Positions 20,071 to 53,800 of a stretch of DNA of 64,000 nt are shown here, one piece after another. Location of the stretch: NCBI GenBank assembly GCA_964187785.1, contig OZ076409.1, positions 77,812,001 to 77,876,000 on the forward strand. Direction: 5' to 3'. This DNA is from Amphiscolops sp. MND2022 (taxonomy: Eukaryota). Within the stretch, counting starts at the first letter, position 1, and every line of letters starts with the position of its first letter. Position numbers and translations under genes: made by a program. Under the pieces are notes generated by a model. That model worked only from the letters and a program-made list of their open reading frames with translations, was not told the origin of the DNA and ran no database searches.

Positions 20071-20820
20071 TCACTACATGCATACAAAGGTTTAGTTCAA
20101 TGCTGTGAATAGTTGAAAATGATTGATTGAAACAGTATTACGTAATCAAACCAGAGAAACTACATACTCTTTATCACAGAAAGACATGTGAAACTGTTAA
20201 TGAAGTACACGTGATTGTTACCCTTTTAATGTAAATTTGTTTGCTAGTTTGATGCTAACGTGAGATTCCATTTTTCCATTTTTGAGGCAAACTCCAAGTG
20301 AATATAACAATGAAACGGGACTTGATTATTCGTTATTAGGTCCCCATTCACTTTTCAAGTTCGGGATTCAACTAGCGCAAATTTGTCAAGAAGAGTCGAT
20401 TCCTTGAAAGTGAAACAACACATTATGCAACATTTTCTCAAATTTTCACATTTCCTCTGGACTTAATCATGCAAATCTGGATAAATATGATTTTAGTGAG
20501 TGTTTTTGTGATGATGTTTTTGTAGTTACTGTTTTGATAGTTAGTGTTTTACATCAGTTAGTGTTTTTATATGATTTTAGTTAGTGTGAACATGAGACCC
20601 CGCAAAACCCGTATAAGGGAATCAGACCATGACACTCAAGTTTTTTGCAAGCTTTTGTCATAGACGAGAGGAATAGGGAAGTCCACCACCATATGGTCTT
20701 CAAGCTAATCAAAAATCAGCTGCTCTAGTCACAACTTCGAAAAATCAATCATCTTAAAATCGGTTCACTCAAACACTCAAATGTAACAATCTACATCAAA
20801 ACTGATAACTCCGTAGAAAA

Positions 20821-31315: not shown

Positions 31316-32400
31316 TGAGCCAGTTCCGAAAATGGTAATGGGCCAATTCTGTACCCTGCGTGATTCGGCCCGGACCCTGTATAATTATGGGCATCTGGAT
31401 TCCATATTTTCGACAGTTTACAGGTATTCAGGTATTGGTGTCCACAGAGTCCAATGAAAACACTTAAATTAATTGCTTCCATTCAAAATTGGATAGGATG
31501 AATTGAAAAAAAAACAAGAAATAATTTTCAATTTTTTTGCATTTTCATAGTTCATTGGCTACTCTGGTTCAATAAATTTTATGTCGTTGCTAACACAGTT
31601 TGGGGTGGAAAACACTCCGTTGCTCAGAGGGCGTCTTGTTGAAATCTTTGGCTGATAATTTCACCCTGATACCGCATTTCATCTTGGGGTCTCTAATTCC
31701 CTTCTTCGATTTGCGAATTTATTCTATTTATGCACGCTGCAAAAATAGAGCCTCAATAGGCTCGTTTTCAAAAACAAGCTTCGCGCGATAGATGTACCGA
31801 ACGAGCCACGAGTTGAGAAAATTTTATAGGTTAAAACTTAGCAAACGAGACGAGTCCCAGCTAGCAAAAAAAAACACAATTTACCTGCGAGGTAGCCTGT
31901 TTTCGAAAACCACCTTTCATGATGTCCTTCAACTTCCGCCAGTCTGTTATTGCTAATAATGACGAGCATTGTGCTCAGAAACCCACCGTCTTACCAGCTG
32001 TTAAAAACAAGTCAACGATCAAAAAAGTTGGGATTGCCAAAAATGATATCATTCACAACTCTAAATACTTGCCAAAGCTTTTTCAGTTCAGTTGAACAGA
32101 ACGGAGTCAACTGCTGTAATGACAGTCTGTTGTCAAAAAATTTTGAAGAGATTCAGAGATAAGAAATTTTACCTTTTAATTAGATCCCATTTTCTGTAAC
32201 TTTTATGCATTGATCTTATTATTACGCCATTTGCTCCTGGGGTTGATGTAGACACTCCGAAGCGCCGGTCATGTACTTATGCGCTGCTCAGTAGGCCTAG
32301 TATGAGAGGGCGTTTCATACATCCTTTTTGTCAACGTATGCTGGTCATATTTCTTAAAAAAACATTTGCATATGAATTTCTCTTAAGTGAACTTCGTTAT

Positions 32401-34884
32401 TGTTACGACATGCTATCGAGTCGTTTTGAGTTGAACTTATCCTCACTGACTTTGTAGGGGTATAAAAGTTTCTAGTCTCCTCTTCTACTTCTTCCTCAGT
32501 ATTTTCCTTGATGCTTCCCCTTGTTTCAGGTTTTAGTAGTTTCAACATCTCTCTCTGGGATTCGGCAAGAAGAGTCTTAATTTCCGATGTTATCTCATCT
32601 TTCAAGGATGCCCTTAAACTCTCCAAGAAACTATTTTCAATTCGAGGAGATTTTGGTCTGGAAGGACCCGACACGTCTACGTCCTGGTTTGAAGAACACT
32701 GATTTTCTATCACTATCGGTGAAATAAAACCTTCACTTACGTCCTTGTCGCCTTGTTGCTCATTCCTTCTTTTCTGGCTTCTAGTTGTAGACATTTTGAA
32801 GACAAGCTTTATCTTGAAGAATTGATTTTTCCAAAGATAATTTTCAACAAAGTTAGCTGAGATTAGAATTTAGCGAAATTGAGAATTCAACTGAATTAAA
32901 CAATTGCAAAAGACTGAGTCCCCGAGTCAATGAAAATCATCCTATATATACCCTCCTAGCATCATTTGATCACGATTAAAATCCTAATTTTCCTCGAACA
33001 ATTAGTCATTTCCTGTATTTTCGATGAAAAAATCATTTTGTTCCCAATTTTACGTCGATAACTCGTCAATTTTTGAGACACGACAATTTCAATCTAGCAT
33101 TAGTCATCAACCACGATCATATCATTTCAGCTCGGCGTCCTTTGCTTTCCTCCCAAGCAGGAAGTAGATATTACTTCAGTCTGTCAAACCGGAAATGATT
33201 CCCTGTTTTACTGCTTTGGTTCGTAGGAAAATGACGCGGAGATGACGCTGACGTGAACAACTAATACCTGATTTTGAATTTTTACTTGAAGGAAATACTA
33301 TGACTAATGTTTTCAGCTTTGGAATTTCCAATGATGCTAGGAAAAGTAAAGATAAAGCTATGGAATTAGCTTCAATTTTTGAGTTGAATTCCCAATTCAG
33401 ATAAATAGTAATTAAACCAAATTAACGTAACACCAACGTTTACATTAGAAAACTAGAATGATTTGGCAACAGCTCTTGGCTTCTACAAAATTGGCTGAAA
33501 AAGTGGACGGAGCTATGACGTGTTAAAATCAAAGGTATTAATGAGTATTAATTTCATAATTGAATTCATTCGTACTCGAGTTTAAACTTTGACGTCCTAA
33601 CGTCGTTGGACCGAACTAATAAAAGTGAAACAGTCAGTTGCCAAAAGTGGTATGAAAATGATCACAATGAGATGTATAAAAACAACAACAAGCACAGTTA
33701 TATTGGGGGAGAACACGAATATGAATATTACAAAAATATGACCTCATTATTAAAATATAATCTTTGCTGGTTCATAGCCCATAACTTTTCAGATACGTCA
33801 GATTGACGTCAGGTTACACACAATCATATTTATGGTCTGCTTCAAACAGCATAAAATGTACATTAATAACATTCCCCCTTTGGAATAAACTGTGACTTTA
33901 ATTATGAAGAACATGGAAATCCTAATCGGGTCATTTTACAATGTGATTCCAAAAGATTAGTATTTTTATTGACGGGAACAGGACGTAAATTATCAAGTTT
34001 TATCCTTAACCTCGTAGAGTTCTAAAACATCTTTAAACGTTTCTTTTCCGTCGAATCCGACATATTAATATTCATTCCACTGAATTGGATGGATTAAACA
34101 GACTATTTTGATGGATTTCGGACGTAACGCGGACGTACGTATTAAGATTAGCCTTAGTCCGCTGGTATTTGACGTAACGCGGACGTATTTAAAATAAGAA
34201 TTAGTCCGCGCCTGGAAGACAACACCGTGACGTCACTATGGCGGAAAATTGGAATGATTTTAAGAGGTGCCACTAATATAGGCGGTAAATTGGAATGGTT
34301 CTCTAGTGAGCGCGGACGGAACGGTGACGTCACACTATATACTTTTAAGTCTGCTTCTTACCGACGTTTAATATACATGTATTCTTTATTTTGTTTACTT
34401 AGCGCAGTGCCTACGTCCTAATCCGCACTAATTGCTGTTCAAAGTGCAATTAAGCTGCCTTTCTTAGAAAAGGAGTGGATATCTCAGTGTGTCATCTCGA
34501 TGTACTTTCTATTTTAGATTCAGATAATGTCCTTTTTCCAGTAGTGATTTTGGGTATGTTTTCGTTTAGATCAGTCTATGGTTTTTATTTCAAGACGTAT
34601 GCTTAATTAAGTTTTCAGGTGGCGAATGTTTCTATTTTGACGAGATGAAAACGTCCTGCCGGAAGTGTGTGAAATCATTTTGGCTCATTTTAGTTTCTGT
34701 TCTCATTTTCATTTAAACTCTGCGCACGTTAGACGTACTTTTAGTCACAGTTTATTCTAACATTAGTATGAAAGTTCAAGTCAGTAGCCAAAATACCTTT
34801 TCGAAAGTTTCGCTGTACAGCCGTGTCCTCGTCCGAATCCGATCCGTCTACATCCACAATCCAGTCCGGGAGCGGACTGTGACA
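32401..34884 (-). repeat. 3' LTR (2484 bp)
   Basis: Matches 46340-48822 with about 14 differences counted by eye (~99.4% identity). Confidence 0.96.
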
Positions 34885-35607
34885 GGGCCACTGTCATGGG
34901 TCGTATAACTCTCCCGGGTTGGCAAAACTGGAACGGCTGATATTGATTGTTTTCCTTGTCGTCTCCTGGAGTACGTTTCGTTGTCGCTGACCGTATTGGT
35001 GCTTGTTTTTCCAAGTCATTTAGTGGGCTAATCGGACGTGGAATTACTCTCTTCAGTGGGCCTGGGGGTGTCTCGAAAAGAGAAATATTGTCTTCTTCCC
35101 TGTGGATTTCCTCCAAATATTCGTTGATAATGCAGCTCGTGATCGATTGTGGGCTTGGTGCACGATGTCCTTCCACCACGAACACATCAGGGTTCGATTT
35201 ATTGTCGTCCTCTTCCTGTTCATCCGGACTGTCTGGACTCTCCTTCATTGAGCTGTATTCAGACTTCGGCGAAGCGTTGTCCAGCTCTCCTGATTCTAGG
35301 GATTCGAAAAAAACGAACTCAGCCGCATTCTCTAGCAGTCCGCTTCTAACGAGTCCGCTGAGACGTCGAAATACTCTTCTTCATCAGCTACTGCTCTGGC
35401 GGATGAATTTGAAACATTTAGGATGACTCTAATATTGGGTAGTGACCCACTGGGAAGGGGAGTTGATGATCTCTCCGACGCTTCTGTTTCGTCTTCACTA
35501 GCTGACGAGATGTCTATTAGCTCGTATATTTCCAGTAGATGGGTCATTTTCTTCAAGAAATTCTTTCTTTCTTTGCAGCTGACTTTTATCTTTTGATTGT
35601 TCCTCAA
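34781..35607 (-). CDS. Sense-strand accessory ORF (acidic, S/P-rich, probably disordered), split by one frameshift near 35335-35380 and ending inside the 3' LTR
   Basis: ORF 35332-35607 overlaps the frame of ORF 34781-35248, which is open back to ~35380. It crosses the LTR boundary at 34884 as ...VALSQSAPG. Confidence 0.55.
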
Positions 35608-35699
35608 TGAATTCAGGATTAATTAGGATTAAGGAGAATATTGGGATAAATCCCTCCATTCTGATTGGCTATTCAATCATTTTAATCCTTTTCAATCCT

Positions 35700-35960
35700 C
35701 AGGTGTTGACGTTATTCCAACGCCGCTTTTTATTGGCCGCAAATTAAATTAATCTGCTTAGTCAAGATTGTCAACGTTATGCTGACGTCATTATAGGTTA
35801 TAGGATTAATAATCCAATAACCTTTTTGTCGACGTTATGCCGACGTCAATTTCGCTGATTTTCCAATCAACTTTTTGGTGCTGACGTTATGCCAGCGTCA
35901 ATTTCGTTGGTGATTTGCCAACTTTAGGTTTTGTCACCGTTATGATGACGTCAATTTCGA
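35700..35960. promoter_or_regulatory. Array of five ACGT-N7-ACGT-like motifs; putative internal bidirectional promoter
   Basis: Consensus gACGTtatgc(c/t)gACGTcaat at 35709, 35774, 35832, 35884 and 35937 (~52-65 bp spacing), between the two divergent ORFs. Confidence 0.55.
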
Positions 35961-36010
35961 AGCTTGTTTTCATTGTTTTGCTTCTTTTTCAGATTCCCTG
36001 CTGTTTCGTA

Positions 36011-39000
36011 ATGGATTCTCGTCCATCTGTTTCTGTTGGTTTTGACCCAGGAGCTCAGAGTGGTCATGAGACTCAGTTCTTATTTTCGGAAGGAGATGTG
36101 CGTCGGAGTGACGCAGATGATATTCATGTTTCAGTACGTGGTAAGTTTATCATTCGTTGATCCATTAAGCTTTCGTGAGATATACTGACAACAGATAGGC
36201 CTTTTCTGTATTTGTATTTCCACAGCTTAGATTTTCTTGACGCGTCGATGTTGGAATGATCTTTTTAGGTGCTGGAGCTACTCCTCCTTCCCCTGCTGCC
36301 GATGAGCGTGAGCCACTTCACTCGTCTACTCCTATCGCAGGTTCCTCTTCAGTTCCCGTCCACGTTCCCGTGACGTCTTCTATTGCATTTACTCCCCCGG
36401 TTGTTTCTACTGCAGACTCAGCTTCAACTCTGGGAGGACTTGACGTCCCTCTTACGCAGTCTGTTGTCGGACCTTCTTCTAGGGACGCAGATAAAACTGG
36501 TGGAGTTTCTGCTCACGTAGGTGAGACAGTATGCCCCCCCTCCAATGAGGAAACACTACAGGTAGCAGAGACAACACCATCCTGTGGTGTCGCTGGTTCA
36601 TCGCTGTTCCCTGGGTTCCTTGGTGGATTCGAGAAAACACGGGCGGAGTCGTCCAAGAAACGGGCATCGCAGAAAGGTAATGGATTACTGCTGAGTTATA
36701 TAGTGTATAGTTTGGAGTTTGCTAATCCCACTTTCTATATTGGGTTTATGATTATGTATTTAGTGCCTAAAGAATTGTCTGCGGTGTTGCCTTTTAAGAG
36801 GAGACGACAAGTGCGCGTTTCAACCGCCGATTTGCAGGTCTCACAGTTTACTGTCAGCGGTAATGTTGAATTCTTTGTTTTTAAATTCGTTGTGGCGGTT
36901 GTTGCAGTTGTTGGCTGTATTCGTTTTGTAGACAGTAACAATGATGATTTGGGAGAAGTGTCGGTGGAGCGTGCTCTGCAAGAGGTGTCAGGAGTGAGCG
37001 ACATGGACACGACTGGACTTGCCCATCCCTCAATTGGTCCGTTTCTGGCAAGTACGTGTGGTCTTTCTGTTACTTGGTATTGTTGTAGTACGTTTGGTAT
37101 TCGCCACATTGTCGAGGTAATGCTGCATTGTTTTGTGTTTATTTCTAGGGATGCAAGATTTAGTATCCCGCATGGAGACAAGTTTCGATGCTGCAGCGTC
37201 ACGTGCCCCTCCTGTCAAGAAGTACAGCAGTCGCCACCGATTGCGAAAAGATATGGTGGGAGATCATCCGGTGTACAGTCTTTTCGTCAGTGGGTCGAGC
37301 AGTGGATCTTCGTCCCTCTTCCACTGTATGATCTGTCGGCGAGACGTATCAATGCAGTCTCGGGGTGCGAGGGAATTTGTCCGCCATTTCGGATCCGATA
37401 AGCATTGGTTTCGAGATGTAGCCTATCGAGTGCAGAAAGACTTGCCCGTCTACAGTCGCTTGATGGAGCCCCTCGAGTTGTCGTCTGATGAGCGTGCAAA
37501 GTATCTGAGCCAGGATCCCGTCGAGAAGGATGAGGGTTTCAGTTTTCCGGAGGATCTGCTACCAGCCTGTACCCGAGTAGACTCCACTGTTCCCCTTCTC
37601 ACTATGGTGAATTGCATCGCCGAGCTGTGCCGCTGTGGGGGTAGTTATACCCTCTTACGCAAACTTTGGGGCAACTTTCGTGCTACTTTGGGGCCAGAAG
37701 ATCCGCTCTACAGCCTGTGTTGGAATCGCGCTGAGACTCTGGTTAGTATGTTCCTTTCTCTTTCTAATCTTGGTGTTATCTTCTTTCCCTTTCCCCTTTT
37801 TTGGTCGGAGTATTGGCGCGTATTATGATGTTTTTCGTAAGTGAGTCTGTGCCTCTGTTTAGTCGTTAATCTGTCGTGCCTTGTACCCACGAGTCTTGAG
37901 ATCTGTGGTGTCGCGAGTGACTGCTTTCAACTGCTATTGTGTCAGTTTCGAGGATCGCGATGATGGACAATATTGTTTTGTCCGAACTTGGGAGGGCAAC
38001 AGTCTACTGGAGATCTGCGTGAATGTTGAACCTTTGGGGCAGCGTATTCCACAAAGTGAGTTGTCGTCACTATCGCGGGTCGTGACGAGTTTGCCCTCAG
38101 GACTTATGCCTGTCAGTATCCGCGGGGTTAGCCAACCAGTGTTGCGGGTCCTCAGTGAGGAGCGGAGTGATGGTTGTCGCTTCGTTTACGCCCGGGAGTT
38201 CTCAGTTGACGTCTTTCTTCATTGTTACCGAGTGGCTCACCAGGAAATCTTTGGGCTTTTGGAGACAACTACGATGGTTGACTACCTCATGTTGCGCTTG
38301 CGTGGGGCTCTTCAGGAGCCTTGGATGATCGACCTGCCAAACTTGCGTCGTTGCGTCACTGCTGGACGGGTGTCTTTCGACGAATTACGAGGAGTCATCA
38401 GTGAACTGATCTCGATCTGGGACACCGTGCGAGAGTACGTCCGCTATACGGGACCTCGCCACATTAAAGTCGGTTCGGACAGGGTGAGTTCTATCTTTTA
38501 TGTGTGATTGGTCAGTTTGTCCTTGGTAGGTTGGTTAGGTCGTCGTCATCATTCCAGTATTCATGGCTTTGTGTGTGTTTTAGATGCGTGGCACAGATCC
38601 TCTGGTGTATTCGGAGTCCACGAATAAACTTCGTCTAGGAATGCTTCTCCACGTACTCGATTTGTGTGAGTTGTTCTTTTACTTGTCAGTAGGTTATTGC
38701 TGTTTTCCATCACGTTTTGATTGTAGTATTGGCGTAGGTTTCTGTGTTGTTGTCGTTTCATTGACGGAGAGTGACCTGGGATGTATATGGTCGATTTCGT
38801 TTGTATTTAGATGACTGCACCTTCAAGAAGCAGAAGACTGGCCGTGTGGATTATGCTTTCCATGCATACAATGAAGTGTGCCAGTTCATATACTGTTTGC
38901 TTTCTCGAAGCCGTGTTGTGTCTGGCCTGCCTCAGATGGACGATTGGGAGGCGTATATGGATCCCTCAAAGTTGAAAGATCTGGAGAAGATTTCAAGTGA

Positions 39001-40126
39001 GGACTTTCTGAAGAGCTACGAGTTCGGGACAGAGTTGCATCGGGCCAATACTGGAGAATTGTGCGAGTTCCGGAATCGTTGTCGAGAGTTTGTGGACCAC
39101 TTAGTTGACGTCATCCTTGCGCAGCAAGTTGTCTCTTCGGATTTTTTCCAAGGTCTATATTGTTTCTGCCCGGAGCTACTTCTGGAAGGGGATGATCGCC
39201 ACGTGTTTCAGCTATTTTCTCGTTTGCTGCGCGTACTTGAGAGATGTGGGGTCATTCAAAGTGGAGTTGCGCGCACTAGCCTGGAAGAGTTCACTACTTT
39301 TGTCGTTGATGCCCGAGCCCGACACCGTGATTCAGGTAGAAGCGCAGAAGAGATCCCTGATATTGTCTCTCATTTGTTGGACGACTACAGTTTCATGTCC
39401 CGAAGGGATTTGGCTCGAGTTTTGAAAATATGCAGTCTAGTTGTTGCTCGTCCTCGAATTAGCATGCCCAAGGTTGAGATCGATTTGGATCGCTGTGCCG
39501 TTCCTGCTTCCGTCATTATGTCGTCACTGCGAGGTGTACAGAGTCTTGTGCTGTCCTCAAATTATAAGCAAGGGGCGTTTTCCACACAGGGGACTATGGA
39601 GAGTGTCCGCGACGCCATCGCTAGTAGTCGCCAGTTTATGTCAAGTGCCTCCTTTGATCCTTGGGAGAGTCTGTGTTGTGGTCGCTCATCATTTGTCACA
39701 AAATATTCGTCTGCTTTTGACGACTACCTTGCGCGTAAGAAGAAGGAGGCAGATGAACAATTGCACAACGCCAATCGTGAGCCTCGTCACGTCCGCTTTT
39801 CGGAGTCTGGTGGGTCACGGACTTCAAGTGTGTGTGGTTCCCCGCGATCTGTTGTTAAGCCAGTTGTGTCATGTACGGCTACTTCGCCTGGGGCTATTGC
39901 TACTAGTAGTTCTAAAACGTCGGGACGTCGTCCAATTGTGGAAGACTCTTCATTGTCTGCAATCTTGGAGCGAAAGAAGAGTGTCAGGAGTGCTGCTGCT
40001 GAGAGTAAGGTGGGTGCTGTGAAGAAAAGTACGGATGAGGGCCCTTCCAAGGATGCGAAAAGGGATCCTAAACTCGGGTCGAAGTCTTCTAGAGAGAAAT
40101 CGTCTGTCAAGTCGAAGAGTGTATAA
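36011..40126 (+). CDS. Antisense 8-exon accessory gene (1121 aa): S/P/T-rich N-terminus, CxxC-x17-H-x5-H zinc finger, inactive hAT-transposase-like body, basic S/K tail
   Basis: Exons: 36011-36140, 36269-36676, 36764-36859, 36932-37051, 37149-37741, 37863-38483, 38584-38665, 38811-40126. All 7 introns are GT..AG, T-rich, 72-145 nt long and phase-consistent. The spliced CDS is 3366 nt with no internal stop. The product call is inference. Confidence 0.85.
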
Positions 40127-40369
40127 ACTTTGAAACAGTTATGAACTGAAGTTTGTGATTTTGGTTTGTAGTTTTTAGTCTGATATTTTTTGCTGTTGAT
40201 TTCCGTTGATTCCCTCTGATAAAATGAATGAGTTCTGGAGGAGGGTTATTTGAAAAGAGAAAAGAGAAAAAAAAGAAAAAAAAATCAGAGTAATGAGGGG
40301 CATTGTGTGTCCTGAATTGAAAAATTGTCAGATCGGTTCGGTCTGGACTCCTGATAAAATCTTTTCCTC

Positions 40370-43300
40370 TTAGTGAGTCGTAGTCATAGCGTCAAGTCTT
40401 CTGAAGTCAGGATTAGCGTTGGGTTTGGGATTAGGTCGTAAATTGTATTTCGCTATTTTCCTTGGATTATATCCAACTATTGTAGGCGGCGATTTTGGGG
40501 GAATAGGTGGGTCTTCAATGGGTGGGGGCGTCGTATATATGGATTATCCCCCACGTCTGTAGTAAGATTTGAAAAGTCCGGAGATGGCGGCGCTTTGTCG
40601 TCCGTAGTTTCAGGTTCCTTGTCCAGTATTTGTTGCGTTGCCGTTTCGTCCTGCGTGTTCGCTACCTCTTGTGTGACTGGTTGTTGATGGTTGTTTTCGT
40701 TTTCTCGCGACTCGTACTCGTCGATCTGTTTCCCGAAATCCATTTCCCATGAGACTGCGTACCACTCATTGTGTGAAATTTTGACATCTGGATCGGGAAG
40801 GTAATTGTCGGCTCGTACTGTGACGTCAGGTAAGCGTTGTTCTGGCACGTAAGGTCGTATGCGAATTCTGTGTAGTGTTTGTGTATATCTTGTGCCAAGT
40901 TTGCGTATTGTGTAGTTATTTATGGAAAGCACTTTGATCACTATGTACGGGCCAGTCCATATGCAGTCTTGGAACGCAAACTTCGTCGACTGGTTGTCGG
41001 CTTTCGGATTGAGTATGTAACAATAATCGTTGATCTTCAGTGGAGCTGCAGACGCTTTGCGGTCGTAGTATTTTTTATATTTGAGGTAGGATAGCATTAT
41101 ATTGTCCTTCGCTGTCGCTCGTACCTCGTCTATTTGTTTTTGTATTTGCTCTGCTATGTCCGAGTTGGGCGTTGTTTTCCACTTTGGCTTGATCCCTAAT
41201 TTTAGGTCGAGGACATTGTAGGGTATTCGTCCGTGGAATACTGTAGATGGTTCACAGCCCAGAGTCTCGTGGTATGTTGTATTGTAATTCATTACAGCTA
41301 TTTGGACATACTTGTGCCTCATTGAACGTCGTTCACCTGTCGAAATTTTTAGTGCGGTTTTGATTGACGCGTGTGTTCTTTCTAAAATTCCGATCGTCTG
41401 TGCATGTTTTGTAGACGCATGGCTGATTTGAATCTCGAGTATTTGGGCTATTTCTGTGACGACTTCTGATCGAAATTGTGAGCCTTCGTCTGATAGGATT
41501 AGTGTTGGCAAGTATGCATGTCTTGTCATAACGTCGACAATGCATCGTCCGATTGTTTTCGCTGTGACATTCTGCGTTGGATATGCAAATAGGTAGCGTG
41601 AAAATACGTCGATCATCGTAACGATGTTCTGGTATCCTGCAGAGCTTGGCAAATTTGGTAGTATGTCAATTTCAAGAATGTCCTCCGGACCAAGGACGTG
41701 TTCCGTATTGTTGATCATTTTCGGTCTGATTTGGCTGTTGTTGATTCGTTTGTATTTGATGCAGTCTTCGCATTGCATTACCCACTGTCTGATTCTTTTT
41801 GCTAGGCCGGGGTAATAGTACTTTGATCGGCATTCTTGAATCATTTTTGTAATCCCCGGGTGTTTTCCCATTTGTCCATGTATTGCCTTCAAGAGTTCTG
41901 TAACCAAGTGTTCGGGAATTAATGTTTGGTGGTGGGTAACTTGTCCACATTCGCCGTAGTACTTTCGCATTAATACTCCATCTTTGACAATTAGTCTGCT
42001 TTCGTGGACTAGAAGGCGTTTGGCTGTCGGATCAGTTTGTAATAGGTGTTTGTCATAATCTTCAGAAATCAGTTTCTTTTTGATTGCTTTGAAAACTAGG
42101 TTTGAATCTTGTTCAACTCTGATGCGAGCATCCTCTTTTATTGCTCCAAAGGTATAAGATGCTTTATTTATTGGAATTGGGGTGGTTTCTTTGATGGCTA
42201 GTTTAATTTTGGACGTCTCCTCGTCGCGCGCATTTTGTCTAGCTTGTTCCTTCTGCAATAGGATTTCTTCTTCTGTTTCAATTGTTTCATCCGGAAGGAA
42301 GAAAAGCTGTTCCTCATCCGCGACGTCCGTAGATTGGAGATTCACTTGAATTGGTCTGATTGTAATATCTTCCCTGATTTTTAGCTCAACTCTTTCTTTG
42401 GGATTGAGATCAATTCTTGAGAGGAAATCGGCCGCCGTGTTTTGCGTACCCGCGACGTGCATTATGTGGAAGTTGAATTGTAATACATAATCACATGCGT
42501 TCCACAGAGTGGGCGGGATCGCTTTTGTTTGAAAAAAACGCGTTACTGATCTGTTGTCGGTCATCACGAGAGTTGGTAGGGTTGTTTCCCATAGAATATG
42601 GCTGTATTCTAGAAATGCATGGTAAATTGCTAGGAATTCTTTGCAGTAAATAGACATTTTTAGTTGAGCTGGGGAAAATACTTTCGATCCAAATGCAACT
42701 GGTGCAAATGTCTTCTTTTTTGAATTGAGTTTTTTGTCATTGTCTTCTTCAATCATTAATGCATAGCCGGAGGCTCGAAAGCTGGCATCCGTCATTAGGA
42801 CGTACTGTCGTCCTGTGATTGGTTGTTTGAGTGCCAAACCGCAAGCTTGCGCCAGTGCTGCGTTGATAGCTTTGTAATGGTCAAGTAGTTCTTCTGTGAT
42901 TTTGATTTGTTTATCTGCTTTCAACAATTCATAGAATCCGAGTAATTTTTCAGATAATCGCGGGATGTAATTGCGATAATAATTGACAAAACCAATGTAT
43001 CTTTGTACCTGCTTTTTTGACTTTGGAAATCGTACATTTGCCAGAAATTTTTGTATTTTATGGTCTTGGGGGGCAATTCCTTGTGGAGTGATTGTTCTTC
43101 CGAGAAATTCAACCTCAGTCACCCCGAAATGGCATTTTTCTATAGTTAGTTTAAGCCCTGCTTGTCTGATGCATTCGAAAACGGCTTTGATGTTACGTAT
43201 CAGTTGCGTCACTGAATTGGCTGCGATCCCGATATCATCCACATATTGTGCGCACTGGTCGGCTTTGATCACTTTGTCTAAGTATTCTCTCATGAAACTT

Positions 43301-45300
43301 GAAAATGCCGACAGGGCTCTGCTCAGTCCTTGTGCTAGGCGTTTGTAGGCGAACGTTCTGCTTGCAAAGTTGAAAGCTAGCATTTCGATTGATCGTTGGT
43401 CTGCCATCTGTAGGCAATGATATGCCTGTGAGCAGTCTAGTTTGCAAAACAATTTTTTCCCAGCTAGATGTTGGGCTGCATCTGACAGGGTGCTGACTGG
43501 GTGGTTATTGTTGATGTAATCGTCTGAGATTAGTGCGTTTATTTTTCGCAGGTCGACAAGTAGACGCAATTTGCCATTTGGTTTCCTCTGTGCGAAAATT
43601 GGGCTTGCATACTTTGAAAATGGTAGGGTCGTTATTATGCCGTACCTGTGCATTAGCGCCAATTCGACTGTTAGGTCTTCTTTCAAATTGATTGGTACCG
43701 GCAAACTTTGCGTGTAAATCGGACGCTCGTCTTTCGGAGTTAATTTGACTTTGAAGCTATTGTTGATTCCAATGTCAAGGCGATGACGCGCAAAAATGTC
43801 GTTGTATTCGATTATTGTTTGTTCAAGTTGCTTCCTGTCATTGCCTTCGATTTGGGATCCTTCCCACTGGAACATGTCAAGGAATTTTTGTCTTGATTCT
43901 GGGTCTTTGGTTGGATCTAAATTTTCCTTTTGGATGAGTTCACGGATTTCCTTCAAGATCCGACGTTGGATTGGCGTGTGTTCTTCTTCGTTCCCTGGAT
44001 TCTCGGGTGTGGGGAACCAGAGGTTTTCATCGCTTTGTTCATGTTCATTTGATTTCATAAGTTCGTTAATGTACATGTGTGTGTCATCAGGATCTTCTAA
44101 CAATTTGAGTGCGGCGGCGTCAACTGGTCGTATTTGTTTCGTGTCCTCAGGTTTGAGGATTTGTAGTTCTGCCAGCTTTGTATGATTCTTTATTGTATGT
44201 GGGAAATCCGTTAGATTGGCGATTCTGATGTTGAGCCTTTTGTTATGGGCTGTCGCCAGAGCTGGTGCAACAATAATTGTTGCTGTTTCATCAAATTGTG
44301 GTAGTGGTTGTACCGCACCAGTGACGTCATGCATGTTTGTATTTATGACTATTGCGTTCACTGTTGTTGTCTGTTGAGGCGACAGTGTCTGATGTCCTTC
44401 TGCCATTATTTGAAGCGGTTTTGGGTTGCATTTTTTCATTTCGTCTGTCATGGCTAACGTCATTTCGACGTGCGGGAAATTGATGGTTCCGTTGGCAGTG
44501 TCAATTACTGCTTGATGATTTCTCATGAAGTTCAATCCTATGATAGGGAATGACGTTTTCGATAGGATGACGAAGGTATCCGTGAAGGTATATGTTCCAA
44601 TATTGAATTGGATGTCCGCTGTGGCTATTGGTTGCTCTAGTTGTGCGTTTGCGCATTCGATCTTGATAGGGGGTTGAGGGTATTCTTTTATGACACAACT
44701 ATCACTGTTCATTTCGATTGCGTTGTAGTCTGACCAGGACATGGCATTGATGAACGCGCCTGAGTCGACGAGTCCATCCATTGTTATCTCGCCGAATTCG
44801 AGTGGCAAGTACAGCATTCTCCTTCTATTCTTGAGGACTATGGTGGAGTGGAGTGGTAAGTACGTCTCTCCATCTTTTTCAGTAACATACTCTTTGATAG
44901 AGTTAAGAGATGTGGGGAAATCCTCTGGGAAGATAGGTACTTGGGTGGAGCCGTGGGTATCTTCCTTTGTCTGTGTTGACGATGGTTGGTCGTCGAGGGC
45001 GTTTTCGGTTTGTTCTGTTTGGGTTATGGTGGATTGTGTTGTATTGGTGAGGGGTGGCTGGATGAGAAGATTTGGGTGTTGTTTGTGGTCGTCTCCATGA
45101 TCTTCATCTTGTGTCAGTTCCTTTTCGGTTTGTATGAGGGGTCTTCGTATGGAAGCGAGTGCCTGACGTTTCAGCTAGTCCTCTGTTGGAGTTCCGTCAC
45201 ATTCTATAGTTGTTTCGTTGGTGTATGTAGTAGGGGGATCATTTGGTGAATACGCCCTCGCGTCTACTGTTTCCCCGAAGCGCAGGCGCGGCGTATCTAG
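40370..45300 (-). CDS. pol: Gypsy Pol (protease, RT, RNase H, integrase, GPY/F) in the -1 frame relative to gag; main ORF 40477-44817
   Basis: Motifs LVDSGA (PR), QYVDD (RT), TDAS/KEFLAI/TDN/AADFLSR (RH), HGQMGKH..CEDC with EIDIL/SDEGSQF/ERTH (IN) and WTGPY. The frame is open from the slippery site except for one TAG at 45175-45177. The family C-terminus KYNLRPNP is in another frame, ending at 40370. Confidence 0.96.
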
Positions 45301-45306
45301 TTTTTT
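45248..45306 (-). promoter_or_regulatory. -1 ribosomal frameshift signal (A AAA AAC plus downstream stem-loop)
   Basis: The heptamer AAAAAAC (45306-45300) sits directly before the gag TAG. It is followed by ATACGCC-GCG..CTGC / GTAG..CGC-GGCGTAT pairing. pol is in the -1 frame. Confidence 0.8.
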
Positions 45307-46733
45307 GATTCAATGACAGAGTTTGCTGTCGTTGGTTGGACGGGAACGTCCCTTTTGGATTCCGGGTTATTGTGACGCTTAGGTCGTGGATCGTTGGCAG
45401 AGTTGGCTCCGTTCCAACAATCTTCCGTTTTGTGAGGTTTGCCGCATGTGTCGCATTTAAGCGACTTGCCTGCACTAGAGTTGGTTTGACCATTGTTCTT
45501 CCTGATCTGCATCCATTTATCTCGCTTCATTTTCCTACATTCCGCTTTGTAGTGTCCAAATTTGTTGCAGTAGAAGCAGTATCCTTTTTTGACATTTTGC
45601 GTCGTGCTGTCGACTTGTTTGGGTTCAGTTTTTGTTGGGGCCGGTTCTACTTTATTTAGTGGTACCAGTGTTACTTCATCTGGCGCCCCAAGGCCGTTAA
45701 GCCTCATTTCTCTTTCCAAGTGTAGCACAATGTCATTATATGGCTTGTCTTCGAGATACGCCCTGTTTAGTATCTTTTTTACATGATCTGGCATTTTTGC
45801 GTATATTGCCTTGTCAATGAATTGTTGGGCTTCAGATCCGAAGGCTTCTTTGGCCGTTTTTTGAAGTACGTCTAGGAATTCATGGAGTTTCTGGTTCGAG
45901 GGGTCAAATCTGAGCGCATCCCATTCGCATCTTGCTTTAGCCGTAGACAGGTAGTCCCCGAAACGTCGTTTGAATATCGTCATTATTTCGTCAAGGGAAT
46001 CTTTTTTCGCGTCTTCTATATTGCAAAACGCCTGGAGGGCGTCTCCTCTGAGTAGCGAGTGGAAATAGTTAATTTTCTGTATTTCCGTGAGATGGGGATA
46101 CATTTTTATGTTGTTGCGGAAAAGATCTTCGAATAATTCAAATTTTTCCGATTTCCCGTCGAACGTTGGGAGAGATGCCGTTAGTGCCTTTGGCATGGGC
46201 AGCGTTGTGCTGTCACCTTTTTCCGATGTAAACAGGGTCCTTGCCACAACTGGACGTTCTTTTGACGTTGGCTGACTTTGGGACCGGGCCTTCGTTCTTT
46301 TTGGCTGGTTAGTGGAGTCGGTTAAAACTCCTGTCACCATGTTACGACATGCTATCGAGTCGTTTTGAGTTGAACTTATCCTCACTGACTTTGTAGGGGT
46401 ATAAAAGTTTCTAGTCTCCTCTTCTACTTCTTCCTCAGTATTTTCCCTGATGCTTCCCCTTGTTTCAGGTTTTAGTAGTTTCAACATCTCTCTCTGGGAT
46501 TCGGCAAGAAGAGTCTTAATTTCCGATGTTATCTCATCTTTCAAGGATGCCCTTAAACTCTCCAAGAAACTATTTTCAATTCGAGGAGATTTTGGTCTGG
46601 AAGGACCCGACACGTCTACGTCCTTGTTTGAAGAACACGGATTTTCTATCACTATCGGTGAAATAAAACCTTCACTTACGTCCTTGTCGCCTTGTTGCTC
46701 ATTCCTTCTTTTCTGGCTTCTAGTTGTAGACAT
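45297..46733 (-). CDS. gag: Gag (478 aa) with capsid-like region and two CCHC-type knuckles; starts inside the 5' LTR
   Basis: LPTFDGKSEKFELFEDLF..YFHSLLRGDA (retrotransposon capsid-like), CFYCNKFGHYKAEC and CDTCGKPHKTEDC. Confidence 0.93.
   Translation of the reverse strand: MSTTRSQKRRNEQQGDKDVSEGFISPIVIENPCSSNKDVDVSGPSRPKSPRIENSFLESLRASLKDEITSEIKTLLAESQREMLKLLKPETRGSIRENTEEEVEEETRNFYTPTKSVRISSTQNDSIACRNMVTGVLTDSTNQPKRTKARSQSQPTSKERPVVARTLFTSEKGDSTTLPMPKALTASLPTFDGKSEKFELFEDLFRNNIKMYPHLTEIQKINYFHSLLRGDALQAFCNIEDAKKDSLDEIMTIFKRRFGDYLSTAKARCEWDALRFDPSNQKLHEFLDVLQKTAKEAFGSEAQQFIDKAIYAKMPDHVKKILNRAYLEDKPYNDIVLHLEREMRLNGLGAPDEVTLVPLNKVEPAPTKTEPKQVDSTTQNVKKGYCFYCNKFGHYKAECRKMKRDKWMQIRKNNGQTNSSAGKSLKCDTCGKPHKTEDCWNGANSANDPRPKRHNNPESKRDVPVQPTTANSVIESKN
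46322..46339 (-). promoter_or_regulatory. Primer-binding site (TGGTGACAGGAGT..., tRNA-Leu-like)
   Basis: TGG directly follows the LTR's terminal CA. It resembles the Leu-tRNA PBS TGGTGTCAGGAGT with one mismatch; the tRNA identity is inferred. Confidence 0.75.
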
Positions 46734-48822
46734 TTTGAAGAAAAGCTTTATCTTGAAGAATTGATTTTTCCAAAGATAATTTTCAACAAAGTTAGCTGAG
46801 ATTAGAATTTAGCGAAATTGAGAATTCAACTGAATTAAACAATTGCAAAAGACTGAGTCCCCGAGTCAATGAAAATCATCCTATATATACCCTCCTAGCA
46901 TCATTTGATCACGATTAAAATCCTAATTTTCCTCGAACAATTAGTCATTTCCTGTATTTTCGATGAAAAAATCATTTGTTCCCAATTTTACGTCGATAAC
47001 TCGTCAATTTTTGAGACACGACAATTTCAATCTAGCATTAGTCATCAACCACGATCATATCATTTCAGCTCGGCGTCCTTTGCTTTCCTCCCAAGCAGGA
47101 AGTAGATATTACTTCAGTCTGTCAAACCGGAAATGATTCCCTGTTTTACTGCTTTGGTTCGTAGGAAAATGACGCGGAGATGACGCTGACGTGAACAACT
47201 AATACCTGATTTTGAATTTTTACTTGAAGGAAATACTATGACTAATGTTTTCAGCTTTGGAATTTCCAATGATGCTAGGAAAAGTAAAGATAAAGCTATG
47301 GAATTAGCTTCAATTTTTGAGTTGAATTCCCAATTCAGATAAATAGTAATTAAACCAAATTAACGTAACACCAACGTTTACATTAGAAAACTAGAATGAT
47401 TTGGCAACAGCTCTTGGCTTCTACAAAATTGGCCGAAAAAGTGGACGGAGCTATGACGTGTTAAAATCAAAGGTATTAATGAGTATGAATTTCATAATTG
47501 AATTCATTCGTACTCGAGTTTAAACTTTGACGTCCTAACGTCGTTGGACCGAACTAATAAAAGTGAAACAGTCAGTTGCCAAAAGTGGTATGAAAATGAT
47601 CACAATGAGATGTATAAAAACAACAACAAGCACAGTTATATTGGGGGAGAACACGAATATGAATATTACAAAAATATGACCTCATTATTAAAATATAATC
47701 TTTGCTGGTTCATAGCCCATAACTTTTCAGATACGTCAGATTGACGTCAGGTTACACACAATCATATTTATGGTCTGCTTCAAACAGCATAAAATGTACA
47801 TTAATAACATTCCCCCTTTGGAATAAACTGTGACTTTAATTATGAAGAACATGGAAATCCTAATCGGGTCATTTTACAATGTGATTCCAAAAGATTAGTA
47901 TTTTTATTGACGGGAACAGGACGTAAATTATCAAGTTTTATCCTTAACCTCGTAGAGTTCTAAAACATCTTTAAACGTTTCTTTTCCGTCAAATCCCACA
48001 TATTAATATTCATTCCACTGAATTGGATGGATTAAACCGACTATTTTGATGGATTTCGGACGTAACGCGGACGTACGTATTAAGATTAGCCTTAGTCCGC
48101 TGGTATTTGACGTAACGCGGACGTATTTAAAATAAGAATTAGTCCGCGCCTGGAAGACAACACCGTGACGTCACTATGGCGGAAAATTGGAATGATTTTA
48201 AGTAGTGCCACTAATATAGGCGGTAAATTGGAATGGTTCTCTAGTGAGCGCGGACGGAACGGTGACGTCACACTATATACTTTTAAGTCTGCTTCTTACC
48301 GACGTTTAATATACATGTATTCTTTATTTTGTTTACTTAGCGCAGTGCCTACGTCCTAATCCGCACTAATTGCTGTTCAAAGTGCAATTAAGCTGCCTTT
48401 CTTAGAAAAGGAGTGGATATCTCAGTGTGTCATCTCGATGTACTTTCTATTTTAGATTCAGATAATGTCCTTTTTCCAGTAGTGATTTTGGGTATGTTTT
48501 CGTTTAGATCAGTCTATGCTTTTTATTTCAAGACGTATGCTTAATTAAGTTTTCAGGTGGCGAATGTTTCTATTTTGACGAGATGAAAACGTCCTGCCGG
48601 AAGTGTGTGAAATCATTTTGGCTCATTTTAGTTTCTGTTCTCATTTTCATTTAAACTCTGCGCACGTTAGACGTACTTTTAGTCACAGTTTATTCTAACA
48701 TTAGTATGAAAGTTCAAGTCAGTAGCCAAAATACCTTTTCGAAAGTTTCGCTGTACAGCCGTGTCCTCGTCCGAATCCGATCCGTCTACATCCACAATCC
48801 AGTCCGGGAGCGGACTGTGACA
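46340..48822 (-). repeat. 5' LTR (2483 bp)
   Basis: Reads TGTCACAG...TCGTAACA on the minus strand and is a direct repeat of 32401-34884. Confidence 0.96.
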
Positions 48823-49954
48823 GTTATTTTCATTTTCTGGCACATCAGAACTTTTTTGACTAAAAACCCTTGATAAAAATCTAGGATATTCTTGGCTTTC
48901 TTAGTAAAAATCTTACCAATATACTTACCAAGAAATCCACAAATTTGCAAGATCTTGCAAGATCGTGCCGAGACACTCAAGAAATTCCATGATTCTTATC
49001 AAGAGTTTCACGAAACTTTATAGTTGATCATGGATGAAAACGCAAAAGGACCTAAGTTTTTTTTTATTTTGGTAAACCTTATGCTCTCAAACACCACTAA
49101 AGAAAGAAAGTGGTGAACTGAAATTAGTATACTATAGTCTAAAAAGACTATATGTCATTTCATACTAACGTTGCTTCATATAATTATAACGTTATAAATC
49201 TGATTCAACAAGTTGACTTCAACATTACGACGCCAATCGCGGAATTTTTGATTTTTTCAAGAATTGGGGAAAGTTGGTTTTCGCACCTACCAAATTGTGT
49301 TTTCAAGAATTCACAAAGATGTGCACTTCAAAGTTCCGCCAAAATGATTGAAGAATCCACACACTAATTTTCCCTTGAAGAAAGTTTCCCTGATTTCAGT
49401 TTTGATATTTTTCCATATTTCCGCTGGAAATTGTTTTATAAACAAAATTCGTTCCATACAAACGGATAATTGGTGTTTGATGAAATGCATAAATAACCAG
49501 AGACTTGCCAAATGGAATTTCACCTCCTTGATAAGGATACTGGCAAGATTTTTGTCAAGAAGTTCAAGATTTCTGAAAGAAGTAAGACTTTCCAAGATCT
49601 TATCAAGAAATTCAAGAAGTAGCAGGATTTTGTAAGAAAATCCATGATCTTGGTGAGAAACCCAAGTGTTTTTTACACTGGGAAGCCACCAGAACGCTGG
49701 CCTATTGGGAACATCATCGTTAGCATTTACCAAAAAATTTGCTACAGATGATGATGAGCCGAGCTTTTTTTTAGTCGGCGCTTTTTGACGAAAAGTGCCG
49801 GACTCTTACTGTTTTTTTTTTCTGTTTTTTACTGGGTAGTTTTTTTAGCCGCGTAAGGTCCACTTTTTAGTTCATTTGTTCAACTTGACCAAAACATACC
49901 GGAAACGTCATCCAAATTTTTAGAAACCGACGTCCAGAACCTCAAAAACAACTA

Positions 49955-50810: not shown

Positions 50811-50854
50811 CATCTCTCAATTTCGCTCAAACTAGTCACATAAAACATACATTT

Positions 50855-53800
50855 TGTAACGATAAGCGCTAAGCGATACCTGAAACAAAAGGTGGAGGAA
50901 CCAATACCATGGAAATGGATCCGGGACAAATCCACCATGGCATTAGCCCATTTTACCTCCTAAAAGGAAGGCGGTCACGAGGACGGGGAACCATCTTGTA
51001 GGATGCTCTCTGGCCTGGTCCCAGTCTTTAATTGCTGAGATTAACGGGCATCCGTCTCGGAACTTCGCCTCGGACCACCGTTTAGACAGCCTTTAAAAAC
51101 AATGCCAAGGATAAACAGTGTAAATTTCCATCTTCGGGATGATATCGGAATAATACCTAAAAAGGGGAATAAGATCTAAAATTTCACAAAGTAGCGCTCG
51201 AGCTAGTCTAGACGGCTAAATCCAGCAAAAATACATCAAAGCACACATCAAACTGGCAAACCACACAGCTATGAGCTATGAGCTGGGAAGGAGGGGCTCC
51301 AAGCACCAAACAAGGATAATTAAGCAAAAAGACTCATTTTACCGGTTTCTGCCACTTTGGGTAGCATAATGCTGAAATCGATGAAAACCGGGGTTAGCAC
51401 CTCAAAAAGAGTCGCCCCCTTATTTTAGAGTTCGATAAGCTCTCAGACTATCTCGTTCAACGTGTTCCCGCTCGGTCTCACTCGGTCTGCTCCCGTCCTT
51501 GTTTTGCATTGGAAATGGCGAAACCAGCAAAAAGAGCAATCACATGCTCATTGTCACGTCACACATCGACTTTGACTTTTTGACAAATTTTCTGAACATG
51601 TCAAATTTCCAAAATCGGTTGATTTTGCTGTACCAGAGGGCCCCGTTACATCACTCCCCGGGTCTTAGACATGACGTCCTTGTCATGCGGAGAAGCTGGC
51701 ATTGAAAACATCTCCACATCATCTTTGCAAACCACTGGGTTTGCAAGGGTCCAGTGGCACTGATATCTTTTGCTGATTGGGTAACTAAGATGTCTTGCTT
51801 CTTGCCATCCAGAGAACCTGCAGCGTCCACAAACTGTTGAAACAGACCTAGCGCGCAGGCTAGAAACCAAGTACTCAAAAATGCACCTGAAAATTGATTA
51901 AAACCAAAATTCCATACATCAATCAGAAAAGCACCACTTTGTTAGCACGAGTTTTATGCAAAAATTTGAATAAGATCCTGCTAGCACATTGTTTTCGGAC
52001 GCCTAAAAATTTTTTTATGTAGCTCTCAAGCTCCAAAAGCGAACGTGATTCTCGTCAAAAATCTCTTTTCCACGGCAGTAGATTTTGTTTGCAGCAAAGT
52101 TAAATGTTCTTTTCGCTAAAACTTCTTTTCAGTGGAAACACAACTGTTTAAAAGGAAGGAAGGCCGTTTTTTGATACTGTTTTCACAGTTCGGCTTGGTT
52201 TGAGCAACACGCACGGATGTGGAGCTCCGTACCTGTATACAGTTTAGAAGCATCTGTTAAGGAGCGCATCAGAATCAAACTAAGAACTGCTGATAACAGT
52301 GGGCACTGATGTAAAGTAGGCAAAGGTAGATCAAATCTTGCAATTTGGTTATCTGGAGCGCTCGAGCTCCTCATTTTTCTGGATATCACGTTGATATCTG
52401 AAGGAAAATACTGGAAACTTTGGGGAAAATACGCAAAACAAAAATAGCCCCTTTCGGGCGAAGAGATACATGTAGGGTTTTTGGGTTATTTCATGCGTTC
52501 ATAGAAGTATTTTGAGTCAGACGTCTCAAAGAGGCAAAGATACAAAAATATTACGACGTTTACATCACCAAAACTAAGGCTTCGTTGTCAAGTTTGAAAA
52601 TAGCTGCTTGAAAGAGTGTCACACTGCCAAGTGTCCATTAACAAAGGTAGTGAAATCCTCAGGGCGTTTACCATTTCAATTGAGCTTGACGGGGGTATTA
52701 TTATCCTCCCATGGAGCTCACCGGGCTTTAGTCGACTCCCCGGGCCTTAATCGTTAGGCACCCTCTTTCACATGAGAATAGTGATGAATGGACAAAATTG
52801 AATGCCTGACACAAAAATGCAGCAGGTTAAATTAAGTGTTGACGACACCTCCTCCCCCTTTAAAAAGAAGTGGAGCGTGGCTTGGACTGTAGATAGGCAT
52901 CATTATCCGATAGCAGCAGGGCATGCAACAAGCATCAAGCATCAGGAAATGCAATGAAGAAAACGGTGGAGACTGTGTCTGTCTCAAGACTGGGATAGTT
53001 GTTCGGATGACGTCCACGCCTAAGTCCCTTCGGTCGATGCGACCATGGTAGTAGAATGACTGAGCGTGGTGGACGGCCACGGCGACGTCCATCATAAAGG
53101 GACAACAGACCTTTTTGTCATGAGTGTTCACAGTCTGTGCGCTCGGGTCGACCACGTCTGTGACCAGTTGGTCGAGTTTTAGCTGAAATACCTGGCGACC
53201 ATTTAGTAGAGATTGGCGGGTCCATCTGAACAAATTCCTGTAAACCACGTTTAGCAGAAGGTGGCTCAATGGAGTATTTCAGCAAATTCGGTAGCAACTG
53301 CGAAGTTGATAAAAAGGACTCTGTTCCAGGGAAGTAAGAGTCGCTTACAGAAACCTGCGAGAAGGAAGTGGAGTGTGAGATTGATATCCGTTCAATCTTC
53401 GTATCACTTGAGTAGAGATTGCGCTCGAGCAACCCATTTTCATCGGCGTGATATTCAGGCAAAGTGTCAGCAATACCCATGGTTGTAGTGTCCAAAGACA
53501 TTGGGTCCAAATCCATGTCTTTATTTGACGGTTTCATTAGTTCTGCTTCGGCGTCGTTTGAAATATTGATAGTGGCACTTCTGAGGTGTGCTTGCACATC
53601 TGCATTTATCGCTTTCAGTTGTGCTAGCGCTCGAGCTAGCAGTTTCTCCCTGCGAAGTGCGCTTTGTGCCAACAAGTCTGATATCTCATCCATCTGCTGC
53701 TCCAGGGCCTCTAATTGTTTGTCCTGTGTCTGATAAATCTGAATACTAGTTTTATGGAGAGAGGATCATTTCGACGACGATACTGAACTAGGACTGGAAG

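Follow-up and report, generated by a model that had tools for sequence, protein, structure and literature searches.

The DNA analyzed here, in the following called the window, is a stretch of 64,000 nucleotides from Amphiscolops sp. MND2022 (contig OZ076409.1, positions 77,812,001 to 77,876,000). It harbors a Ty3/Gypsy retrotransposon that carries, besides gag and pol, a spliced gene on the opposite strand. A preliminary description had reported seven GT-AG introns in this antisense gene and had placed it between pol and the 3' long terminal repeat (LTR), opposite to gag and pol. Both statements were borne out: the seven introns lie at the coordinates reported, the eight exons join into 3366 nt with a single terminal stop (1121 amino acids, aa), and the gene occupies the plus strand while gag and pol occupy the minus strand. 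Exon 1 (coding part 36011-36140; aa 1-43) is conserved across the alleles described below. Exons 2-4 (36269-36676, 36764-36859 and 36932-37051) encode a fast-changing N-terminal region that is rich in Ser, Pro and Thr and includes, at aa 189-194, a basic motif, and exon 5 (37149-37741; aa 252-449) encodes a C2H2 zinc finger followed by a predicted helical linker. The predicted strands of an RNase H-like core and the start of a helical insertion are found in exon 6 (37863-38483; aa 450-656), which lacks a conserved catalytic Asp, while the short exon 7 (38584-38665; aa 657-683) is followed by exon 8 (38811-40126; aa 684-1121) with the helical insertion domain, a degenerate hAT C-terminal region and a basic, Ser-rich tail. 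The introns (36141-36268, 36677-36763, 36860-36931, 37052-37148, 37742-37862, 38484-38583 and 38666-38810, all on the plus strand) are T-rich (T 0.41-0.50), with a GC content of 0.31-0.41 compared to 0.46-0.54 in exons. Over the gene region, four stop-to-stop frames of at least 200 aa are found on the plus strand.

The element itself is flanked by a target-site duplication of 5 bp, GTTAT (32396-32400 on the left and 48823-48827 on the right). Its direct LTRs with TG..CA ends, both in minus orientation, measure 2484 bp (3' LTR, 32401-34884) and 2483 bp (5' LTR, 46340-48822) and are 99.48% identical (12 substitutions and one gap across 2485 columns), close to the roughly 99.4% estimated before. 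For Ty3/Gypsy elements a duplication of 4-6 bp is expected. The 5-bp duplication and the TG..CA ends indicate that an integrase made the insertion. Pfam matches on the minus strand comprise gag, reverse transcriptase (RT), RNase H (RH) and integrase (IN), in the order gag, then protease (PR)-RT-RH-IN. The capsid-like gag with its CCHC knuckle (45297-46733, minus strand) has its start codon within the 5' LTR, while pol (PR-RT-RH-IN, 40477-45306, minus strand) is open from 40477 to 45174 and has an in-frame stop at 45175-45177 that is absent from all six sister copies compared. A sense accessory open reading frame (ORF), ORF X (34781-35547, minus strand), enters the 3' LTR and is interrupted as well, so that the window copy is young but damaged. 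The word intact, as used in the preliminary description, consequently fits the antisense reading frame, but not the copy as a whole.

An open antisense frame in a copy that has diverged by 0.5% proves little on its own, and therefore sister copies were examined in the 1.07-Gb assembly. A search with exon 8 gave 7129 genome candidates, 132 of which were scored, with identity tiers of 96-100%, 69-76% and 59-62%. Twenty of the 132 served as loci found through the gene; two further searches contributed 20 loci of greater divergence, and another 14 were taken from the 51 scored matches to the homolog P0125. In each of the three sets (20/20, 14/14 and 20/20; 54/54 in all) an antisense pol stands tail-to-tail with the gene. 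If loci were instead found through the integrase, the antisense gene was present in 14/14, and all 54 integrase matches of at least 95% identity had an antisense-gene match alongside. These copies belong to the aORF-3R class, i.e., LTR retrotransposons with an antisense additional ORF, and judging from the loci compared the gene is a trait of the whole clade. Gene and pol trees contain the same three deep clades, between which the pol proteins are about 53-68% identical. Thus the capture of the gene is old. For the homologs P0144 and P0125 the best match in this genome reaches just 29-49%, which suggests that the gene exists in other genomes too. The homologs P0195 and P0196 likewise lack a close match in it. 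Homologs of exon 8 were not found among longer proteins, and the metagenome scans and one viral scan returned no relative.

Introns of the sister copies were placed by a spliced aligner guided by the window protein, with GT and AG required at the exact places. Splice positions turned out to be common to copies with a protein identity of just 40-68%: the same codon and phase is used for intron 4 in 19/20 copies, for introns 5 and 6 in 38/40 each and for intron 7 in 34/40. Conserved intron positions, which the preliminary description had put forward as a check, were thus obtained for introns 4-7 in most copies. Introns 1-3 are placed less consistently, with intron 3 not found in 7/20 copies, because exons 2-4 align poorly. 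Intron length varies from 66 to 347 nt, each intron occurring in 14-26 different lengths, and of 136 intron instances just 2 would leave the frame open if read through. The homolog P0125, a single ORF, aligns unbroken over junctions 5, 6 and 7 (27% identity, 842 columns, E 2e-87), and in a third lineage the core is free of introns in 14/14 copies, with plus-strand introns present further 5'. Intron 7 is exactly absent, without any indel (17 codons in 51 nt), from five of 20 copies (L094-L095 and L098-L100); these two groups nest in different clades, which points to two separate losses. Such precise losses are the expected trace of recombination with spliced cDNA and may be taken as an indirect sign of expression. 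As judged from position, phase and length variation, the introns are real splice units. Apart from this, part of the gene is duplicated internally in L098, and L089 shows an internal deletion.

The count of eight exons holds for the coding region, but probably not for the whole transcript. Eighteen nucleotides before the ATG an acceptor-like TTTCAG (35986-35992, plus strand) is invariant in 11/11 aligned copies, and consequently an additional non-coding exon and intron in the 5' untranslated region are probable. Within intron 1 the palindrome GACGCGTC (36239-36246) was detected. It recurs in the matching 1.4-kb stretch of 49/55 copies from all three lineages, compared to 5 times in the remaining 473 kb, and in 44 of these 49 it lies 21-30 nt before an acceptor. 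The palindrome is a candidate for a branch point overlapping a putative protein site or for an RNA dimer signal.

Selection was assessed by the ratio of nonsynonymous to synonymous substitution (dN/dS). Within the core (aa 280-990) it amounts to 0.12-0.20 in five close pairs and to 0.05-0.21 in other unsaturated pairs, in line with the earlier expectation of values below 1, and no sign of positive selection was seen there (dN/dS <0.25). Between alleles, the proportion of synonymous differences (pS) is about 0.75-0.79 and hence saturated, whereas that of nonsynonymous differences (pN) is 0.15-0.29. The core is free of stops and frameshifts in 26/41 intron-bearing copies, while the C-terminal tail is weakly constrained. 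Conserved introns and purifying selection together uphold the former proposal of a selected cargo gene that makes the element a 'complex' retrotransposon.

The source of this cargo is suggested by its fold. An AlphaFold2 model of P0125 (53 sequences; predicted local distance difference test, pLDDT, 80.5) comprises an RNase H-like core with a large helical insertion, the arrangement of hAT transposases, over the catalytic and insertion domains. With this model, Hermes fills the top 10 rows of Foldseek (E 1.4e-4 to 1.4e-3, prob 1.0), VIA gives Hermes with a Z of 12.8 (402 residues aligned, root-mean-square deviation 5.6; next best Z 7.0) and the best match of a viral library is a hAT-family protein (E 3e-4). 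Language-model searches led to clusters of FAM200, ZBED5, EPM2AIP1 and ZBED1 with scores of 0.81-0.84, which are leads only, being under the tool's mark of 0.9. An ESM Atlas search with exon 8 returned no usable match, and a DUF4371 search of the genome gave no match, its controls likewise being unmatched. The antisense protein thus appears to have a hAT transposase fold. Trp603, conserved in 54/55 copies, corresponds in a manual mapping to the position of the hAT 'RW' motif. The zinc finger (C-x2-C-x16-H-x5-H) is preserved as well, with C311, C314, H331 and H337 kept in 53, 52, 55 and 55 of 55 copies. Basic clusters occur at aa 189, 689 and 992 and in the tail, which would fit a protein acting in the nucleus. 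An env-like role of the protein was rejected, as its maximum hydropathy is 1.3 and it has no transmembrane segment.

In five host hAT ORFs (L120-L124, 597-697 aa) the residues D, D and E as well as CxxH are invariant and the DDE triad is intact. No conserved triad was detected at the mapped positions across 55 copies of the antisense gene: the most-kept acidic residue reaches at most 11/55 at aa 531-541, 43/55 at aa 474-482 and 34/55 at aa 893-910, the latter two being mixed positions, with D and E at aa 474-482. With a hAT fold and no invariant acidic residue at the mapped positions, the protein very likely has no cutting activity and would be catalytically dead. This bears on the possibility that the gene goes back to a plain insertion of a hAT transposon in an ancestral Gypsy element, where it would persist as a still-active transposase or neutral passenger. 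The fold would fit such an event, and genuine hAT elements are abundant here (2215 candidates). However, activity is hard to reconcile with the missing DDE, and a neutral passenger is ruled out by dN/dS of 0.05-0.21 at a synonymous divergence that has reached saturation. Furthermore, the gene was never met apart from pol (54/54 loci), and no inverted repeat of at least 40 nt surrounds it in the window, shorter terminal inverted repeats being outside that search. This explanation is largely refuted and we regard it as very improbable, while it is very probable that the antisense gene is a real, selected, spliced and hAT-derived cargo gene.

A fourth gene of the element, ORF X, is arranged head-to-head with the antisense gene. 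It is open from its first ATG over 232-301 aa in 15/20 sister copies and interrupted in the other five as well as in the window. Its product is acidic and rich in Ser and Pro, with a Cys/His motif at the C-terminal end, and nothing scored above the cut-off in a Pfam scan. dN/dS of ORF X is 0.10-0.33 in unsaturated pairs, dS being saturated between lineages, and in the third lineage a counterpart of 208-219 aa occupies the same place in 7/8 loci shown. A sense, env-like ORF3 with signal peptide and transmembrane helix was not found, and ORF X has no Pfam env match. Between ORF X and the antisense gene lies a conserved block (35626-35778) with GGATTA, GGGATAAA and two ATTGG/CCAAT boxes, after which come repeats of the TGACGTCA type; its invariant parts are shared by 11/11 copies. 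We consider it a putative bidirectional promoter of both genes. A promoter in the 3' LTR, as in the case of HBZ, is disfavored: a cAMP response element (CRE) and TATA-like site is present at 34325-34345, yet its TATA part is missing in 2/18 copies, and ORF X intervenes.

The antisense gene occurs in alleles that are 50-70% alike and reside on near-identical LTR/pol backbones. If five loci (L036-L038 and L046-L047) are compared with the window, LTR segments are 88-98% and pol 92-98% identical at the DNA level, while the gene is about 70% identical or cannot be aligned. In this comparison dS of pol is 0.19-0.35 where that of the gene is saturated, and over pairs of different alleles with a saturated gene dS it is 0.19-0.65. 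L033-L035 show the reverse pattern (gene dS 0.06, pol dS 0.38-0.50). The 54 closest integrases are accompanied by allele A in 2 cases, by B in 36 and by C in 13, with 3 typed solely by another query. The same mosaic structure exists in a second lineage, where L068 and L071 share 94% DNA identity in pol and 65% in the gene. In alleles B and C the divergence starts right after the invariant acceptor at 35992, which marks the left edge of the cassette. These patterns would fit template switching with retention of old alleles. One might go further and speculate that the alleles are specificity types in a competition between copies or with the host, be it exclusion, incompatibility or a poison-antidote system, maintained by frequency-dependent selection. 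Saturated synonymous sites in the gene next to a much less diverged pol, the reverse case of L033-L035, three alleles among 54 near-identical integrases and the mosaic of L068/L071 all speak for it. However, a fitter pol/LTR backbone sweeping through older families would give a similar allele pattern without any selection on alleles. In addition, the core is devoid of a sign of positive selection and neither a second isoform nor an antidote was identified, so that specificity types are quite improbable as an explanation.

We favor, with a probability of about 0.55, the view that the antisense protein is a domesticated, dead hAT transposase that acts in the nucleus as a non-cutting, DNA-binding scaffold and keeps the element transcribed. 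Transcription would start from an internal promoter, probably bidirectional, that also serves ORF X. The introns would persist because the genomic RNA carries them in reverse. Once in the nucleus, the protein would bind element DNA like domesticated hAT proteins do, and the bound scaffold would maintain transcription of the element, by trans-activation or by relief of host silencing, as needed for its spread. The collection of copies would retain very old alleles of the gene, which template switching at the conserved flanks would transfer from one LTR/pol backbone to another. Expression, DNA binding and the regulatory effect of the protein are what we infer from these data. More tentatively, the clade may be seen as a complex retrotransposon of four genes, one of them a DNA transposase domesticated as its obligate anti-silencing or trans-activating factor. 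Very old, interchangeable alleles of this factor would be kept under balancing selection in a conflict with host defence or between copies, similar to the exchange of env types by retroviruses. This wider picture is possible, but we would not call it probable.

Several observations weigh against a DNA-binding hAT scaffold. A link to hAT by sequence was not obtained: a Pfam search over the exon frames, 20 homologs and 36 exon-5 sequences gave nothing above the cut-off, a PDB sequence search with alignment A1 gave 0 matches, and hhalign of A1 against the five host hAT transposases gave no match (probability 0.1%). The fold model is that of the 27%-identical P0125, carried to the window protein by alignment, and the catalytic positions were assigned by eye, with motifs and secondary structure as a guide, rather than by residue-level superposition. 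Exons 2-4 are weakly constrained (dN/dS 0.2-0.8 where measurable), the core is interrupted by a stop or frameshift in 15/41 intron-bearing copies, and the sampled copies are the top-scoring ones among more than 7000 candidates and no census. Alleles A, B and C occur on LTRs that are 88-99% identical; this lack of co-variation between LTR and allele argues against allele-specific recognition of LTRs of the VANC type, which was rejected on these grounds. Finally, structural matches of the zinc-finger region (pLDDT 76.9) are weak and mostly of the U1/matrin type (Z up to 3.8), that is, fingers of RNA-binding proteins, and RNA is consequently as possible a ligand as DNA.

The latter point leads to a suppressor at the RNA level, in which a U1/matrin-type finger and a dead RNase H fold would bind element RNA or components of a small-RNA pathway and protect or export the genomic RNA. 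The finger resembles those of SF3a, TUT1, TUT4 and Prp11 type (Z 3.1-3.8), weak Pfam matches to the SF3a60/Prp9 C-terminal family occur in 11/36 members (best E 0.012), and deep allele divergence would fit a conflict with host defence. However, all finger matches are under any reliable threshold, a BED-type finger (ZBED3) is among the weak Foldseek rows too, and known domesticated hAT proteins bind DNA. Such a suppressor is therefore distinctly unlikely. Alternatively, the dead transposase might act on the cDNA or the particle, by binding LTR ends or the integration complex and aiding nuclear entry or the choice of target. hAT transposases bind element ends, the match to Hermes includes the catalytic and insertion domains, and on one LTR, with invariant ends (TGTGACA block), the alleles can replace one another. 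A role in nuclear import has also been suggested for plant antisense ORFs (PMC7264820). Yet the product of a separate transcript from the opposite strand would not be packaged with Gag-Pol, and deep allelic divergence is not predicted by a cDNA helper, which renders it unlikely, and we retain the nuclear scaffold as the preferred reading.

If compared to known systems, the element is closest to plant Ty3/Gypsy elements of the Tat/Retand type (Grande gene23 of maize, RIRE2 of rice, Silene Retand) and to Boty of Botrytis, which likewise have a family-wide antisense ORF between pol and the 3' LTR. Grande's ORF has its own upstream promoter and a nuclear protein for which a regulatory role was proposed (PMC7264820; PMC11963269; PMC4408406), and Retand and Grande antisense proteins are described as nuclear or predicted to bind DNA (PMC7264820; PMC11963269). 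For the plant ORFs, a lack of similarity to other transposable elements was used to argue against a nested origin (PMC7264820), whereas here the fold suggests such an origin. The plant proteins contain TRP28/PF04195 or a plant mobile domain instead of a hAT fold, and neither PF04195 nor PF10536 matched the window exon frames or homologs at E 0.1. Unlike the plant cases, the present gene spans 1121 aa with seven introns in the coding region, has a divergent sense ORF as partner and swaps alleles; in the available text of PMC11963269 the word 'intron' is absent.

The preliminary description had likened the gene to HBZ of HTLV-1. This loose comparison holds insofar as an antisense gene lies in the 3' half, and a sense accessory ORF entering U3, reminiscent of HIV nef, and CRE-like LTR motifs extend it. 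HIV nef overlaps the 3' LTR and HBZ is a small bZIP protein. In contrast to complex retroviruses, the element lacks an env-like or transmembrane ORF, its antisense promoter seems to be internal and the protein is unrelated to HBZ, so that Retand and Grande are the closer precedent. Hermes and domesticated hAT proteins (ZBED1, ZBED5/FAM200, EPM2AIP1 and ZBED6) share with the antisense protein an N-terminal C2H2 finger, an RNase H-like core with helical insertion and the Trp at the 'RW' place, while DDE, CxxH and a Pfam match to Dimer_Tnp_hAT are missing here. ZBED factors, which function as regulators, have their origin in hAT elements (PMC10027918). However, they were tamed by the host at one locus, in contrast to the apparent domestication by a retrotransposon in thousands of copies.

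Among other element-encoded accessory proteins, VANC of VANDAL Mutator elements also diverges fast and is a proposed counter to host silencing (PMC13547354), but differs in fold and element class. Co-evolution of VANC with its target motifs, mentioned in a title among the references of PMC13547354, contrasts with the LTRs here, which do not co-vary with the alleles. Captured extra genes are also known from animal LTR retrotransposons: those of bdelloid rotifers have a non-env ORF3 (GDSL, DEDDy) downstream of pol with spliced messages and intact catalytic residues, the available text containing neither 'intron' nor 'transposase' (PMC5408684), and planarian elements carry other extra genes (PMC6431247). 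In Arabidopsis, Copia elements have multi-exon antisense transcripts, but these are reported as non-coding (bioRxiv 2024.04.02.587720), and in a survey of env-carrying metazoan elements 'antisense' and 'transposase' never occur (PMC13524379). In the literature searched, which left most subscription papers, Repbase reports and supplements aside, no hAT-derived or multi-intron antisense coding gene of an LTR retrotransposon was encountered. Antisense extra ORFs as such are thus known from plant elements, and the multi-intron version with a hAT fold is apparently new.

While host domestication of DNA transposases is well known, the domesticator here appears to be another transposon. Reviews call the origin and function of antisense ORFs in LTR elements unknown (PMC7264820; PMC11963269). 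For such ORFs a case is now at hand whose source can be traced and which offers clear selection, natural alleles and candidate copies by the thousand, so that the question of function becomes testable. It also exemplifies a retroelement that keeps, and sometimes exactly loses, spliceosomal introns. Genes of this kind are liable to be misannotated as host genes or to be omitted if elements are annotated by ORFs only.

Further features of the element concern its sense expression. A slippery heptamer at the gag stop (45300-45306, minus strand) and a conserved GC-rich block, kept in 7/7 copies, presumably form a -1 frameshift signal joining gag and pol. Separate or spliced expression of pol was rejected, as gag and pol of the sister copies overlap via the -1 frameshift; the gap between them in the window copy is due to its own pol stop. 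The putative primer-binding site (46320-46339, minus strand) starts with TGG and adjoins the 5' LTR. A polypurine tract abutting the 3' LTR was not found: the 25 nt next to the LTR are of mixed composition and belong to ORF X, a short GGGAGAG about 25 nt upstream being the sole purine run there. Since gag starts inside the LTR (46340-46733; 32401-32794), its first ~131 codons are duplicated in the 3' LTR, which also contains the 3' end of ORF X. In the 5' LTR a sense TATA-like box (46882-46889) lies about 150 nt upstream of the gag start, and U3 thus measures about 1.9 kb. The junction with the 3' LTR (34885-34925), which lies inside ORF X, forms a short inverted repeat. A donor-like GTAAGT in sense orientation near gag codon 18 (46679 and 32740, minus strand), kept in 10/11 copies, might be used in splicing of a sense RNA, for instance one leading to ORF X.

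Acceptor-like sites on the plus strand within the LTR (34517, 34618 and 34744), conserved in 10-11/11 copies, hint at antisense transcripts into or out of the LTR; those leaving the 5' LTR would enter host DNA. Blocks at 34429-34443 and 33076-33340 are invariant in 11/11 copies and include the 15-mer TAATTGCTGTTCAAA as well as GGAA- and TGACGC-containing motifs. TGACG-type motifs, several of them invariant, reach about 10 per kb in the LTR and promoter region compared to 1.4-2.1 per kb in the flanks and are candidate cis sites. Next to the pol stop, an intergenic stretch (40315-40477) is 75-86% conserved in 40/55 copies with an invariant CGGTTCG-like core, possibly representing an RNA signal or a low-level coding tail.

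Elsewhere in the window, an older, decayed Gypsy-like element occupies about 7785-22738 on the plus strand, with repeats at 7785-8606, 9744-10673 and 21834-22738 and pol remnants at 10992-14959; its pol is 28-48% identical, and no match to the antisense gene was found in it. A tandem array spans 3279-7219, its units of about 1028 bp being 84-96% identical, and an inverted repeat with arms of 102 bp (90% complementary, 4-nt loop) is located at 15546-15753. Among related pol proteins, P0279 and P0296 are assigned to the dUTPase family PF00692 in precomputed annotation. Direct repeats at 50854-51651 and 58483-59220, 7.6 kb apart and 87-95% identical, are possibly the LTRs of another old element.

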